Positions 61 to 62,891 are shown, counted from the first letter of the stretch. The stretch: DNA of 64,000 nucleotides from Chloroflexota bacterium (GCA_028873965.1 JAPPMU010000024.1:16503-80502), one strand, 5' to 3'. Numbers and translations: made by a program. The notes: a model not told the origin generated them from the sequence alone.

Positions 61-279
61 ATGAACCGCACTCAACGTGATCTGATACTGCTGGCTGCTG
101 GCATCGGCATCGGGGTTGGCCTCGGTATGCTGCTGGCGCCGCGCAGCGGCCGGGAAACCCGCCAGGCATTGACGCAGGGCGCCAACCAGGCCGTCGAACG
201 GGGCCGCGACTACTGGCAGCGCATCCGTAGCCGAATCGCCGCCGGCGACAGCGACGCGGAGCTCGACTCCGAGGATTAG
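61..279 (+). CDS. YtxH-like small membrane/stress protein
   Basis: ATG at 61 lies 6 nt after AGGAGG. N-terminal TM helix LILLAAGIGIGVGLGMLLAP is followed by SGRETRQ and a charged helical tail, the YtxH pattern. The track ORF starts at an upstream TTG (19). Confidence 0.6.
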   Translation: MNRTQRDLILLAAGIGIGVGLGMLLAPRSGRETRQALTQGANQAVERGRDYWQRIRSRIAAGDSDAELDSED

Positions 280-360
280 CCCGAGACGTTTCGCCGGGGC
301 GACGGTCTATCCGGCCGTCGTCCCGGCATTTTTACGCCGCTACGCGAAGGACAGCCGCTT

Positions 361-654
361 ATGTCGCCCGACGTCGTGTCGATTATCCGAGATATTGCAA
401 TCATCGTTATGGCGGTGATGGTGACCGTGGCGGCGCTGGCTCTTACCGTCGTGACGCTGAAGATCTATCCCAAAATCAAGCGGGCAGCAACCAATTTCGA
501 GGCGTCGTCTTGTCTTATGCTCGACGCCGCCGCACGTATCTCCAGCCTGGTGACTGCCGGCAGCGAGATCGGCGCGTTCGTCTGGGACCTGGTCACGCGG
601 ATCCGCGGTGGCCGTGACGAAAAGCCGGAAGACGAGAACAAACCAGCCAAGTGA
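361..654 (+). CDS. small membrane protein (DUF948-like, common neighbour of YtxH genes)
   Basis: 97 aa ORF with one N-terminal TM helix (IAIIVMAVMVTVAALALTVV) and a helical charged tail. It sits directly after the YtxH-like gene. Confidence 0.45.
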   Translation: MSPDVVSIIRDIAIIVMAVMVTVAALALTVVTLKIYPKIKRAATNFEASSCLMLDAAARISSLVTAGSEIGAFVWDLVTRIRGGRDEKPEDENKPAK

Positions 655-689: not shown

Positions 690-798
690 GTCAGAAGCAG
701 GATTTGCCGGATTTTAGGATTTGCTGGATTGGGCGCACTTTTCCAGGTGACGGTTCCAATCCTGATAATCCTCAAATCTTGAAAATCCTGCTTCTGAC
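690..798. repeat. MITE-like element, family 1 (TIR GTCAGAAGCAGGATT)
   Basis: GTCAGAAGCAGGATT at 690-704 and its reverse complement AATCCTGCTTCTGAC at 784-798. A second copy with the same termini and a similar interior lies at 55301-55411. Confidence 0.8.
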
Positions 799-831
799 AA
801 CTCCGCGACGCAAACTGGGTGCGTAAGAAGA

Positions 832-977
832 CAGGGCCTTTTCAAAGTCACTGCGGCAACCTTCGCGCCACCCAATCGTCATTCCTGCGAAAGCAGGAAT
901 CCAGGGTCCGCCGTCAATAGGGAGGTTCTGGGTTCCCGCTTTCGCGGGAACGACGGGTGGACTTTGAAAAGGCCCTG
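832..977. mobile_element. 146 bp MITE carrying two REP-type hairpins, with 18 bp perfect TIRs and a 9 bp target-site duplication
   Basis: CAGGGCCTTTTCAAAGTC at 832-849 is the exact reverse complement of 960-977. GTAAGAAGA flanks both ends (823-831 and 978-986). The interior holds hairpins GTCATTCCTGCGAAAGCAGGAAT (878-900) and GGTTCCCGCTTTCGCGGGAACGAC (931-954). Confidence 0.85.
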
Positions 978-1055
978 GTAAGAAGAATATTCGCCTTGTA
1001 CACGTTCCAATGCCTAAGTTATAATTCCGAGTTAGTTTCGTTATTGCGGTGTGTG

Positions 1056-2135
1056 ATGGCAGATATATTCGACAAGCTGCAGCCTATCGTGGATCGCTAC
1101 CGGTCCATTGAAGATGAAATGGCACGACCGGAAGTGGCTGCTGACTATGCCAGGTTGCGCGAGTTGAACCGCGAACGGTCCGGCCTTGAAGAGCTGGTGG
1201 GCATCGACAGCCAGCACCGCAAGCTGTTCGAAGAGCAGGCCGACCTGAAAGCGCTGGTCGGCGAGGGCGGTGATCCCGAGCTGGTGGAGATGGCCCAACT
1301 GGAGCTGGACGAGGTCGAACAGCGCATTTCCCAGTTGGCGCAGCGGTTGCGGATCGCCCTGCTGCCGAAGGACCCCAACGACGAGCGGGACGTCATCGTG
1401 GAGATCCATGCCGCCGCCGGGGGCGAGGAGGCATCGTTGTTCGCCGGCGACCTGTATCGCATGTACCAGCGCTTCTCCCAGGAGCAGGGCTGGACGGTGG
1501 ATATACTGGACTCCAACGCGTCGGATCTGGGCGGCTTCAGCCGCATCGCTTTTTCCGTCGATGGGGACAACGCCTTCAGCCGGCTCAAATTCGAAGCCGG
1601 CGTCCACCGGGTGCAGCGTGTCCCCGAAACCGAGACCCAGGGCCGCATCCATACCTCCACGGTCACGGTGGCGGTGCTGCCGCAGGCTGACGAGGTCGAG
1701 GTGGACATCAAGGAGGACGACCTGCGCATCGACATCTTCCACGCCGGCGGCCACGGCGGGCAGAATGTCAACAAAGTCGCCACGGCGGTCCGGATCGTCC
1801 ACGAACCCACCGGCGTGGTGGTGGTCTGCCAGGACGAACGGTCGCAGTACAAGAACAAGTCCAAGGCCATGACCATATTGCGCAGCCGGCTGTACGCGGC
1901 GGAACAGGAGCGGCACCAGGCTGCCATCTCCAACAGCCGCAAAGCGCAGATCGGCAGCGGCGACCGCTCCGAGAAAATCCGCACCTACAACTACCCCCAG
2001 GATCGGATCACGGACCACCGTATCGGGCTGTCGGTCCACGGCGTGCAGCGCCTGATGGACGGGGGTCTGGGCGACATCATCGACAAGCTCATTGCCGACG
2101 ACCAGGAGCGCGGTCTGGCCAGCGTGTCAGCCTGA
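1056..2135 (+). CDS. prfA: peptide chain release factor 1
   Basis: Full-length RF1-like sequence with the GGQ motif (HAGGHGGQNVNKV) and an RF1-type tripeptide context (RVPETETQGRIHTS). The in-frame ATG at 1056 (MADIFDKLQ) is the likely start. The track ORF is extended upstream into the MITE. Confidence 0.95.
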   Translation: MADIFDKLQPIVDRYRSIEDEMARPEVAADYARLRELNRERSGLEELVGIDSQHRKLFEEQADLKALVGEGGDPELVEMAQLELDEVEQRISQLAQRLRIALLPKDPNDERDVIVEIHAAAGGEEASLFAGDLYRMYQRFSQEQGWTVDILDSNASDLGGFSRIAFSVDGDNAFSRLKFEAGVHRVQRVPETETQGRIHTSTVTVAVLPQADEVEVDIKEDDLRIDIFHAGGHGGQNVNKVATAVRIVHEPTGVVVVCQDERSQYKNKSKAMTILRSRLYAAEQERHQAAISNSRKAQIGSGDRSEKIRTYNYPQDRITDHRIGLSVHGVQRLMDGGLGDIIDKLIADDQERGLASVSA

Positions 2136-3152: not shown

Positions 3153-3899
3153 ATGCGTGCCCTGATCCTCTCGGACATACACTCCAACCTGCAGGCTTTT
3201 GACGCCGTCCTGGCGGATGCGGACGACGCCGGCGGATACGATATGGTTTGGTTTCTCGGTGATCTGGTGGGCTATGGCTCGGATCCGAGCGTGTGCATCG
3301 ATCGGCTGCGGAGGCTGCCCCACGTCGCGATCGCCGGGAATCACGACCACGCTGTGACCGGCAAGCTGAACCCGGACCTGTTCAACGGCGCGGCGCGGGC
3401 CGCCGCGTTATGGACGGCCCAGCAGCTATCCGACGACGAAATAGCCTACCTGGCCGCGCTGCCCGAGGTCCGGCAGACGGAGAAGTTCACCCACGTGCAC
3501 GGCAGTTTGCGAGATCCCGTTATGGAATATCTCATCAGCGAGCCGGCAGCCCTGGCGACCTTCGCCCTGATGGAGACGCCCTTCTGCCTGGTGGGACACT
3601 CCCACTATCCGTTGGTCTGGACTGAGGAGGACGGTCGGGCCGGCGTCGAACTGCTTGACCCGGCCACGCCGCTTTTGTTGGAATCCGGTCGCAGAATGAT
3701 CGTGAATCCCGGCAGCGTGGGCCAGCCGAGGGACGGCGACTGGCGCGCTTCCTACCTGCTCTATGAAAGCGAGGCGGGTGGCAAGGCCGGCATGCTGCAC
3801 CATCGTCGGGTAGAGTACGACCTGGCCGGAGCCCAGAACGGGATACTATCGGCAGGTCTCCCGGAGTCCCTGGCAATCCGCCTGGGCAACGGGCACTAG
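3153..3899 (+). CDS. metallophosphoesterase family protein (YfcE/MJ0936-like)
   Basis: Motifs LILSDIHSN, GDLVGYG and GNHD in the canonical order. Confidence 0.8.
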   Translation: MRALILSDIHSNLQAFDAVLADADDAGGYDMVWFLGDLVGYGSDPSVCIDRLRRLPHVAIAGNHDHAVTGKLNPDLFNGAARAAALWTAQQLSDDEIAYLAALPEVRQTEKFTHVHGSLRDPVMEYLISEPAALATFALMETPFCLVGHSHYPLVWTEEDGRAGVELLDPATPLLLESGRRMIVNPGSVGQPRDGDWRASYLLYESEAGGKAGMLHHRRVEYDLAGAQNGILSAGLPESLAIRLGNGH

Positions 3900-5729: not shown

Positions 5730-6227
5730 TTATGCTGTGGGGGCAACGTCCGGTGCGTTCCGCGCCCAACGGGCCAACGCCTTGCCGGATGCCGTAATTT
5801 CCGCAACCGAGGTGTAGTAGTAGTCCTGCCATCCGCGTTCGGGCAAGCCGGCGAACAGCATCAGGTTCAGAGGGTACTCCTCGCTGTCGGTGACCCGGCG
5901 GAAGTCGTCGCGGAACAGGAAAGTCGGCTTGCCCAGGGCGATGGCGATGCCAAGTTCGACCATCACCCCCTCATCGGGCGGCGTTCCGTTCACGACGGCG
6001 AAGATCGCGTCGGCGTCGCGCACGTCTTGGCAATCGGCCAGGGCGATCCGGTGAGCCCAGCCCGGTTGTGACAGGTCCACCTGGTTGTTGCGCTGGAACG
6101 GCTCCCACACCTCCAGGCCGAGGCTCTCCAGCGCGCCGATAAGTTCCGGGAGCAATCGCGTCTTCTGCTGCTCCGAGAACCCGTAAGGGTTGGCGAGGTA
6201 AACCGTTTTACGACCGGACGCGCTCAT
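5730..6227 (-). CDS. nucleoside 2-deoxyribosyltransferase-like protein
   Basis: VYLANPYGFS near the N-terminus and PDEGVMVELGIAIALGKP match the family pattern. Confidence 0.7.
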   Translation of the reverse strand: MSASGRKTVYLANPYGFSEQQKTRLLPELIGALESLGLEVWEPFQRNNQVDLSQPGWAHRIALADCQDVRDADAIFAVVNGTPPDEGVMVELGIAIALGKPTFLFRDDFRRVTDSEEYPLNLMLFAGLPERGWQDYYYTSVAEITASGKALARWARNAPDVAPTA

Positions 6228-6236
6228 GCTCTTTGG

Positions 6237-6659
6237 TCACGCTCGGGAAGATTCGCGCCAGAGCCGACAACCGGTGACACCCAGGGCGGTGGGAGCCATC
6301 GTGTCCACAATGATCCAAATGATGTCGTTGGTGACATCGCCTTCGCTGCCGTTGAGAAAGCGGAACCAGTTGTACAGGAAGACGAGCGACACGCCCAACG
6401 TGAGATAGAACGTGGCGTTGGCTTCCAGGTAGGCGCGGGTCACCGCCTGGTTACCATCGGGCACGCTGACGTGTACCTTGTGGTGAATGTTGAAGGCCAG
6501 GGCGGTGGCCAGGCCGATGAGCATCAGCACGTCAAGCACGTGCCACACGACCAGCGCGCTGACCACGTTACCCAGAAACGTGCTGACGATGAAAAACACC
6601 GCCACCGCCACCGCGGTGCCCAGCATATAGACGCAAACCAGTTTCTTCAGCGGGCTCAT
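6237..6659 (-). CDS. hypothetical integral membrane protein (4 TM)
   Basis: Hydrophobic helices throughout. The in-frame ATG at 6659 avoids overlap with the purL 3' end. The track start at 6722 overlaps purL. Confidence 0.5.
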   Translation of the reverse strand: MSPLKKLVCVYMLGTAVAVAVFFIVSTFLGNVVSALVVWHVLDVLMLIGLATALAFNIHHKVHVSVPDGNQAVTRAYLEANATFYLTLGVSLVFLYNWFRFLNGSEGDVTNDIIWIIVDTMAPTALGVTGCRLWRESSRA

Positions 6660-6688
6660 AACGCCTTCCGGGTTCTTCTTCAGCGCCG

Positions 6689-8932
<2,244 letters not shown>

Positions 8933-61437: not shown

Positions 61438-61821
61438 ATGGAATACAAGGGCCGAAAGTACCGAAAACTTTACGCTCACCTGCGCAGCCTGTCTTCTCAG
61501 GAATGGAAGGCGTCATTCGATGATATTGAAGCCATCATCGGTGACCGCCTGCCCGCGTCCGCGCGACGTCACCGGGCTTCATGGGCCAACGACATCACGC
61601 AAGCCCGCGCCCGCGCCTGGCTCGCCGCTGGGTGGGAGACGGCTGACGTGGATATGGACGCCGAGACGCTGCTTTTCCGGCGAAAGCGACCACTGCTCGC
61701 CAGTCGCCGCAATCTCGATGAAATTTGGCCCGCCCGCTCCTTTGGCCCTTGGCCCGAAGGACTGAGCCTGCGGCGTGAAGACTTATACCGGGAATGGGAG
61801 CGGGTCTCTGATGTTTATTGA
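61438..61821 (+). CDS. putative antitoxin of the VapC pair
   Basis: 127 aa. The C-terminus (GPWPEGLSLRREDLYREWE) resembles VapB-type tails. It overlaps vapC by 11 nt. Confidence 0.5.
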   Translation: MEYKGRKYRKLYAHLRSLSSQEWKASFDDIEAIIGDRLPASARRHRASWANDITQARARAWLAAGWETADVDMDAETLLFRRKRPLLASRRNLDEIWPARSFGPWPEGLSLRREDLYREWERVSDVY

Positions 61822-62233
61822 CACCAATGTACTCGTGTACGCACGGAACCGCGACGCCCCTAACCACCATCTCGCGAGAGATGCGCTGCAACAGGTGGCG
61901 CAAGGCCCTGAACCCCTGCGCATCAGCCGTCAGGTAATCCGAGAGTATCTGGCGGTAGTCACACGTCCGCAGGCCTGGTCGGTTCCACTTACCAGTACCG
62001 AGGCGGTCCAAGACGTGAACTCTCTGAACGGCTCCTTCAATATACTTGCGGATGGCCCGGAGGTAATGGAGGCGTTGCTCGCATTGATCCGCAGAGTTCC
62101 GGTATCAGGAAGGCAAATCCACGACGCCAACATTGTCGCAACCATGTTGGCCCACGGGGAACGCCGGCTGCTGACGTTCAACACCAGAGATTTCCGCAGA
62201 TACGGAGACCGAATCGAGCTGGTTGCCCTCTGA
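61811..62233 (+). CDS. vapC: PIN-domain toxin VapC
   Basis: MFIDTNVLVYA ... GRQIHDANIVATM ... LLTFNTRDF carries the PIN acidic residues in order. Confidence 0.8.
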   Translation: MFIDTNVLVYARNRDAPNHHLARDALQQVAQGPEPLRISRQVIREYLAVVTRPQAWSVPLTSTEAVQDVNSLNGSFNILADGPEVMEALLALIRRVPVSGRQIHDANIVATMLAHGERRLLTFNTRDFRRYGDRIELVAL

Positions 62234-62264: not shown

Positions 62265-62295
62265 TTCAAAGGGGTGGGTTTTGAAAGCCCACCCC
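62265..62295 (-). terminator. intrinsic terminator between convergent vapC and the UGSC gene
   Basis: GGGGTGGG (62271-62278) pairs with CCCACCCC (62288-62295). On the minus strand it is followed by TTTGAATAT. Confidence 0.6.
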
Positions 62296-62323: not shown

Positions 62324-62860
62324 TCACCCGCCGGTCAGGATCGCCACCACCTCGGTCGCCAGACCTTCGGCCCGCTCCCGCAGAGCCGGTCGGTCCAGGT
62401 TTTCGATGGGGTGCTGGGTGAAGATCGTCGGGTAGTCTTCCGCTCCCCACATCTTGGCCATGGCGTTGGCCGTGGGAATGAACCGGTCGGTGCAAATCGT
62501 CGCGGAGGGGAGGCCAGCCTTCTCAACGTGGATTCCGTCGTGCACACTGCACGCGCTGCAGCTCCCTCAATCGCCGATGGCAACCACCACCGAGTCCACG
62601 TTGGCAACCAACTCCTCCATTTCCTTCGGGTCAGCCGGCCGCGACGCGCTGGGCTTGCGGAGCCAGCGGACTTCCCGGATTTCGTAGCGGTTGCGCAAAA
62701 CCTCCGCCAGCTCCTCGAGCAGCACGTCCGCGTTGCGCTTGCTGTCGTCGATCAGACCGACCCGGGTGCCCGCCAGCGTGTGCAGGCGCGGCGCGCCGTC
62801 GAAGGGCGCAATAATGGGTTCGGTGACCGGGTTGACCAGTTGGTAGGTTTGAGTAGCCAT
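62324..62860 (-). CDS. UGSC-family selenoprotein (in-frame TGA = Sec at 62569-62567)
   Basis: The two track ORFs (62567-62860 and 62324-62545) are in the same frame and are separated only by TGA. The read-through gives ..VVAIGD-U-GSCSACSVHDGIHVEK.., that is the U-G-S-C motif. Hairpins follow the TGA. Confidence 0.7.
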
Positions 62861-62891
62861 ATTAGCCCTCCTGGGATGATTCCTGAAGCCG

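Follow-up and report, generated by a model that had tools for sequence, protein, structure and literature searches.

A predicted UGSC-family selenoprotein gene with a near-invariant coding-region SECIS candidate and a conserved partner gene in a Dehalococcoidia genome

Two ORFs of a Chloroflexota bacterium lie in one frame on the minus strand of the stretch of DNA analyzed here (64,000 nucleotides, hereafter the window) and are parted by a single TGA codon. This arrangement raises the question of whether the locus holds two genes or a single gene whose UGA is decoded as selenocysteine (Sec). The first-pass annotation of this DNA had favored a single gene and had placed the Sec residue in the U-G-S-C motif that names the UGSC family of (seleno)proteins. 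By comparing the locus with its homologs at the levels of protein, codon, and predicted mRNA structure, we arrive at a probability of about 0.9 that it is indeed a single UGSC-family selenoprotein gene with its UGA decoded as Sec. The features on which the analysis turns are collected in Table 1.

Table 1. Coordinates of the predicted selenoprotein gene, its candidate RNA element, and the neighboring partner gene in the window.
Feature	Position	Strand	Details
UGSC-family selenoprotein gene (predicted), complete	62324..62860	(-)	178 codons + stop, Sec at codon 98
In-frame UGA, predicted Sec codon	62567..62569	(-)	U of U-G-S-C; TGA/TGC column in homologs
Predicted SECIS hairpin	62536..62555	(-)	nt 15-34 from U of UGA
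Predicted SECIS upper stem CGUGCA/UGCACG	62553-62548 + 62544-62539	(-)	loop GUG 62547-62545
21-nt block GCGUGCAGUGUGCACGACGGA	62534..62554	(-)	invariant at synonymous sites, encodes A-C-S-V-H-D-G
Spacer with Shine-Dalgarno-like GGAGGG before ATG 62860	62861..62891	(-)	read from sequence
Partner gene, 354 aa	62892..63956	(-)	start TTG 63956; co-oriented, 31 nt upstream of UGSC start

From the ATG at 62860, the reading frame runs through 97 sense codons to the TGA (62569-62567) and then through 80 more sense codons to a stop at 62326-62324, with no further stop between. The earlier description of two ORFs that share this frame and are separated only by the TGA is exact to the base, and the read-through peptide that it quoted for the junction (...DSVVVAIGD-U-GSCSACSVHDGIHVEKAGLP...) matches the sequence exactly. 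The shorter of the two predicted ORFs (62324-62545) is simply the frame opened at its first GTG, seven codons past the TGA. It had also been anticipated that standard gene callers would report two fragments, and public records for the locus do list two adjacent genes, of 97 aa and 73 aa, each of which matches Pfam PF24696. The 97-aa N-terminal piece is deposited as MDE2787170.1 (OXL37_10955, 'hypothetical protein'). Close homologs in a collection of 5.8 billion proteins are mostly 97- to 98-aa pieces ending in ...IGD, which indicates that the same TGA cuts gene calls almost everywhere. The short spacer that separates the gene from its upstream neighbor is consistent with a putative two-gene operon.

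The region downstream of the gene has features of its own. About 30 nt past the UGSC stop, between convergent genes, is an 8-bp GC-rich hairpin at 62271-62295 (GGGGTGGG-9 nt-CCCACCCC, followed by TTTG) that may be a bidirectional terminator; a terminator scan missed it because of its 9-nt loop and short T run. Beyond it, at 61438-62233 (+), overlapping ORFs for a DUF7662 protein and a PIN-domain protein form a toxin-antitoxin-like pair, placed between the UGSC gene and a Trm112p / CopD-like / redoxin cluster. Because this pair is missing from the relatives L001-L008, it looks like an insertion.

Membership of the read-through protein in the UGSC family, as named by the first-pass annotation, was borne out by both curated models. 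With U written as C, the protein scores 154.3 bits against NCBIfam NF041046 ('UGSC family (seleno)protein'), over profile positions 2-147 of 147, and 187.7 bits against Pfam PF24696 ('UGSC'), where the curated cut-offs are 125 bits (NF041046, an equivalog model) and 25 bits (PF24696). Its Cys homologs bear the NCBI name 'UGSC family (seleno)protein'. The motif column reads AIGD-U-GSC here versus GVGD-C-GSC in these homologs, and residues S100, C101, S102, and A103 are invariant in the UGSC alignments.

The UGSC-containing protein was recognized by Zhang and Gladyshev as a major predicted selenoprotein family in marine metagenome surveys, the GOS survey alone yielding 255 Sec and 21 Cys sequences (PMC2398784). 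The family now has an NCBIfam accession in current reviews (PMC13188914; PMC9312934), and its functions are described as largely uncharacterized (PMC13188914). In the literature on the family, we found no experimental proof of selenium in any member. The copy in the window, which comes from a Dehalococcoidia (Chloroflexota) MAG, differs in nothing essential from the family as described. It shares scores above the cut-offs, the motif column, the alternation of Sec and Cys between lineages, a length of ~180 aa, and the linkage or fusion to a conserved domain that has no name ('Unknown_1' in PMC2398784). The copy belongs to the subgroup reading ...IGD-U-GSCSAC..., whereas ...LAD-U-GSCT[ST]C... 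is commoner in metagenomes.

We examined the Sec column in about 48 related loci drawn from metagenomes and from one-genome-per-species contigs. All 39 of the Sec-form loci, 38 from Chloroflexota and one from a Streptosporangiaceae genome (L041), have TGA at this position, and 10 Actinomycetota loci have TGC (Cys). The column is likewise TGA in 119 of 119 unique metagenome sequences. An alignment of homologs had been proposed as a check on the Sec assignment, and in it the TGA column pairs with Cys in full-length proteins. The internal TGA of Sec-form loci is never TAA or TAG, whereas their terminal stop drifts among TGA, TAA, and TAG. Moreover, the 80 codons past the TGA, whose conservation had been singled out earlier as bearing on the choice between one gene and two, are conserved in frame: their protein sequence is retained in homologs as distant as 55% identity, and their synonymous sites scatter in the ordinary way.

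The first-pass annotation had also predicted that the mRNA immediately 3' of the TGA folds into either of two hairpins, at the place where a bacterial SECIS is expected. Both CTGCA-GCGCG-TGCAG (62561-62547, or nt 9-23) and GTGCA-GTG-TGCAC (62552-62540, or nt 18-30) are present as described, and the second carries the conservation. The first was rejected as the SECIS. Its closing pair is broken in 12 of 27 sequences, its loop falls at nt 14 (only 10 nt past the UGA), its 5' arm lies in variable codons, and it competes with the invariant hairpin for the same 3' bases.

Evidence for the second hairpin comes from the codons that encode it. Among 35 unique Sec-form sequences, synonymous diversity is zero at codons +5 to +11 (GCG UGC AGU GUG CAC GAC GGA), and the codons flanking this block have two to five synonymous forms each. 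Outside the block, only about five of roughly 125 degenerate codons are invariant. The RNAalifold consensus is the same CGUGCA-GUG-UGCACG hairpin, in which the predicted lower part consists of a bulged A32 and the pairs G16-C33 and C15-G34, giving eight pairs in total, all of which are kept in 27 of 27 unique sequences. The sole stem change in this set, C15 to U15 opposite G34, preserves the pairing, and the six upper pairs are constant. Because the stem does not otherwise vary, it offers no compensatory covariation. Folding energies compared with those of shuffled sequences gave z values of 0.1 to 0.6, meaning that the hairpin is not stabler than GC-rich shuffled sequence. Thus, the case for this predicted element is one of conservation and not of stability.

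The position of the hairpin agrees with that of known elements, in that its GUG loop, which offers G and U, starts at nt 23 from the U of the UGA and hence falls within the 16-37 nt from the UGA given for the apical loop of bacterial SECIS elements (PMC10778597). When the element was expressed as a DNA pattern (TGA + 13 nt + CGTGCAGTGTGCACG), at least 120 JGI metagenome contigs were matched, and 120 of the 120 contigs returned read U-G-S-C-x-x-C-S-V-H in frame. No Rfam family was matched around the TGA site at the gathering threshold or at E ≤ 10, and Rfam appears to be without a model for the UGSC element.

The SECIS of E. coli fdhF, whose sequence we checked by an exact match inside fdhF among 5,419 E. 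coli genomes, likewise sits inside the ORF directly past the UGA. Compared by sequence, the two elements both have G23 and U24 in the apical loop, which in fdhF we take to be the bases contacted by SelB, and both have the 3' arm U26-G27-C28-A29-C30 at identical positions. They differ in that the loop is 3 nt (GUG) in the UGSC hairpin versus 4 nt (GGUC) in fdhF, and in that the UGSC hairpin has a bulged A32 on its 3' side and no 5' bulged U as in fdhF.

A hairpin embedded in coding sequence should leave a trace in the protein. Cys-form genes vary at the block codons and encode S-A-V/I-A where the Sec forms have C-S-V-H. Since the Cys forms, which need no SECIS, vary there and the pattern matches all keep C-S-V-H, the residues Cys104-Ser-Val-His are probably the coding imprint of the SECIS and not a second redox motif. 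The CxxC-like pair noted in the first-pass annotation (C101/C104) is present, but its role as a second redox motif is improbable given that the codons UGC AGU GUG CAC form the stem-loop. Several Cys-form actinobacterial genes (L038-L048) also fold strong GC-rich hairpins in the first 48 nt past the TGC, some with an fdhF-like GGUC loop (for example, GUCGGC-GGUC-GCCGAC in L042). The synonymous sites of these hairpins vary, and therefore they look like a by-product of GC-rich Ala/Ser/Val/Asp codons or a fading relic.

Variation around the Sec codon itself was also recorded. The Streptosporangiaceae MAG (L041, ~3270-3320) has a Sec-form UGSC gene, in contrast to the Cys form of the ten other Actinomycetota genomes sampled, and its hairpin has an identical stem with a GUU loop for GUG (Val to Leu) that keeps the loop G-U. 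At another locus (L049, 650-700; proteins P0001 and P0002), CGA (Arg) replaces TGA to give D-R-S-S-C, and the 21-nt SECIS block (GCGTGCAGTGTGCACGACGGA) is intact; these proteins could reflect a Sec residue recently changed to Arg, or a copy that has been inactivated. The Asp codon that precedes the UGA (62570-62572, (-)) is GAT in every one of the 33 Dehalococcoidia sequences. Across the larger set from metagenomes, GAT outnumbers GAC at this position by 77 to 39, though the genomes otherwise favor GAC, and this preference may reflect a context effect on Sec insertion.

We scanned the window for other cases of the same kind and found seven in-frame TGAs with coding-like flanks, among which the UGSC TGA alone has a coherent protein across it. 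A same-frame ORF pair at 5730-6749 (-), parted by a TGA at 6239-6237, mimics the signature of a selenoprotein; it was rejected as a second example because it consists of two abutting genes, a membrane protein gene and a nucleoside 2-deoxyribosyltransferase-like gene that starts just past the stop. The remaining five TGAs look like antisense shadows of opposite-strand genes. No second selenoprotein gene that might serve as independent proof of Sec use was found in the 64-kb window.

Searches for the decoding machinery covered the same window and beyond. ARAGORN and Rfam gave only tRNA-Leu in the 64-kb window and no tRNA-Sec, and tblastn with E. coli queries found no homolog of SelA, SelB, or SelD in the window or in the fetched flanks of close relatives. 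Across the window and 169 loci, tblastn returned only a selD fragment (L068) and an EF-Tu-sized gene (L058). The fragment is the 3' end of selD (82-384 (+), with the motif DPQTSGGLL) on one short, unrelated metagenome contig, where it lies ~300 nt from a Sec-form UGSC gene (707-1218 (-)) in convergent orientation. BSepDB, which takes in a species only when two or more genes of the Sec pathway are present, counts 46 and 49 selenoprotein genes in Dehalococcoidia MAGs, which ranks their selenoproteomes with the richest in bacteria (PMC13326102). The source organism is a probable selenocysteine user.

How else might the TGA be read? Every public pipeline has treated it as a genuine stop, which would mean either that two separate small genes, of 97 and 73 aa, lie here or that one gene has been split or is decaying. 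The GTG seven codons past the TGA is available as a start for the second gene, and the Sec machinery was not found in the window. However, the codons between the TGA and this GTG encode G-S-C-S-A-C-S, which takes in the GSC motif that defines the family and aligns position by position with the CGSCSAS of uninterrupted Cys homologs, and in the homolog model described below both halves build one five-strand α/β domain with the motif in its middle. In addition, the arrangement is kept in more than 150 independent sequences with an internal stop that never drifts to TAA or TAG, and the GTG has no Shine-Dalgarno motif, its site being occupied by the invariant hairpin. On this evidence, we regard a genuine stop as very improbable. 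An assembly or sequencing error is conceivable for any sequence taken from a MAG, but the TGA recurs in seven independent contigs with an identical protein and in dozens of genomes that were assembled independently, closed long-read chromosomes among them. These independent contigs and genomes refute an error, whose probability we consider negligible.

A third possibility is that the UGA is read through as a residue other than Sec. A near-cognate or suppressor tRNA (for Trp, Cys, or Arg) or a reassigned UGA could act here, and the CGA (Arg) in P0001 and P0002, with the hairpin kept, indicates that the position can hold another residue. Nevertheless, UGA is an ordinary stop in the window, where it ends about half of the high-GC3 ORFs, the UGSC gene included, and hence a reassigned code does not explain the read-through. 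The homologous column holds Cys, forming the classic Sec/Cys pair. Furthermore, a strict hairpin with a G-U loop at the spacing of fdhF is what SelB-dependent decoding requires, whereas leaky read-through needs none, and the class is known for very large selenoproteomes. Decoding as a residue other than Sec is therefore improbable in our estimation, and a single gene with UGA decoded as Sec is the reading that we carry forward.

To predict the fold, an AlphaFold2 model was made for a full-length Cys homolog (P0118) that is 44% identical to the protein of the window. This confident model (pLDDT 88.9, pTM 0.84) consists of five successive β-α units, with the C/U-G-S-C motif where strand 3 meets helix 3. 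Its matches in the PDB are flavodoxin- or Rossmann-like and all weak, the best being the flavodoxin domain of a flavodiiron protein (TM 0.49) and others including WrbA, the catalase C-terminal domain, and the RecJ DHH domain. No thioredoxin was present among the top 50 structure matches. A thioredoxin-like fold had been suggested for UGSC (PMC2398784). Thioredoxin-fold oxidoreductases carry their redox motif at the N-terminus of helix 1, unlike the P0118 model, and neither the β-α architecture nor the lack of thioredoxin matches supports that suggestion. Rather, the UGSC fold is predicted to be flavodoxin-like. A PDB sequence search with the UGSC protein and with its profile gave no significant match.

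Sequence profiles point to one group of possible remote relatives. The PrdB profile matches 21 of 33 UGSC family members and the GrdB profile 9 of 33; these matches are weak but recurrent and lie around the Sec site, with UGSC residues 82-160 aligned to GrdB profile positions 331-400. PrdB (TIGR04483) and GrdB (TIGR01917/TIGR01918) are the selenoprotein B subunits of D-proline, glycine, sarcosine, and betaine reductases. The scores of the UGSC protein are 21.7 bits against TIGR01917 (cut-off 602.2) and 18 bits against TIGR01918 (cut-off 65.45), such that it would be a remote relative of GrdB/PrdB at most, and not a member. PrdB is listed with a UxxC Sec motif (PMC2398784) and works with a partner subunit, as UGSC is predicted to do. 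UGSC differs in being less than half the length of GrdB and in having a partner for which no resemblance to PrdA, GrdE, or any named family could be detected, and no grd or prd genes were found near the UGSC locus. Weak matches to geranylgeranyl reductase NCBIfam models, seen for 22 of 33 members, were discounted because the VVVGVGD... strand-loop probably mimics a dinucleotide-binding motif.

The upstream gene, which encodes the 354-aa protein, adjoins the UGSC gene in 45 of 48 related loci, and it lies upstream on the same strand in 83 of 83 metagenome loci with a detected partner, 24 of the other 37 metagenome contigs (those without a partner match) being too short to show it. In Actinomycetota, the partner gene lies immediately downstream of the Cys-form UGSC gene. 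Fusion proteins of ~540-660 aa have an N-terminal PF24696 domain followed by the partner domain, and these match the UGSC/Unknown_1 fusion noted earlier (PMC2398784). The partner family comprises 4,899 clusters at 50% identity, and Cys80 in its NAxMAGC motif is invariant across phyla and in the fusions. From this distribution, the 354-aa protein is a predicted obligate, uncharacterized partner of UGSC that is syntenic in two phyla.

Attempts to assign the partner to a known family were negative, as it matched no Pfam entry at E ≤ 10, no NCBIfam model at E ≤ 0.01, and no PDB sequence at E ≤ 10. The AlphaFold2 model built for it, for which the alignment was shallow and its sequences at least 75% identical, is poor (pLDDT 64), and a Foldseek search with this model gave nothing below E = 1e-3, with TM values of 0.29 or less. 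Echoes of class I fumarate hydratase and of 'Toblerone-fold' amidohydrolases were weak and are not trusted. The partner family also includes tandem duplications of ~710-740 aa (P0388, P0394, P0395, and P0397), each with two matched stretches and no UGSC domain.

These results suggest a mechanism for the locus. A hairpin that begins 12 nt past the UGA, with an 8-bp stem, one bulged A, and a GUG loop, would recruit SelB-Sec-tRNA(Sec) as the UGA enters the A site, as does the fdhF SECIS of E. coli. Being part of the coding sequence, the hairpin would fix the peptide C-S-V-H after UGSCxx. The resulting protein would be a small α/β domain of ~180 aa with U-G-S-C where strand 3 ends and helix 3 starts, and there, at the N-terminus of the helix, Sec98 and Cys101 may alternate between a selenenylsulfide and a selenol/thiol pair. 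Its activity would involve the upstream gene product, with which it would form a complex or, in some organisms, a single fused protein. By analogy to PrdB and GrdB, UGSC and its partner would most likely constitute a thiol/selenol-dependent oxidoreductase made up of two subunits, of which the one with Sec is a distant relative of selenoprotein B.

For the annotation of this genome, the two 'hypothetical proteins' of 97 and 73 aa become one predicted selenoprotein. An almost invariant SECIS candidate whose codons dictate C-S-V-H may be useful to annotation pipelines, as may a simple search with TGA + 13 nt + CGTGCAGTGTGCACG, for which each of the 120 contigs returned held a UGSC gene. Nothing is changed in principle, since both the family and its Sec codon were described by the mid-2000s and NCBIfam has a curated model for them; the family-wide SECIS candidate and the imprint it leaves in the peptide, a model that is flavodoxin-like, and counts for the linkage to the partner are small additions. 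The tie to an unnamed partner may help with the functional assignment of the abundant, unstudied UGSC family, and the partner-UGSC module is the only part of these findings that could lead somewhere new. One tentative proposal, which we hold to be possible but doubtful, is that UGSC and its partner form a widespread two-subunit selenoenzyme, with a Sec subunit that is an offshoot of PrdB/GrdB and a partner whose Cys80 has a substrate-binding or resolving role. If true, this would place a new reductase class in aerobic soil, marine, and symbiont bacteria, and not only in amino-acid-fermenting anaerobes.
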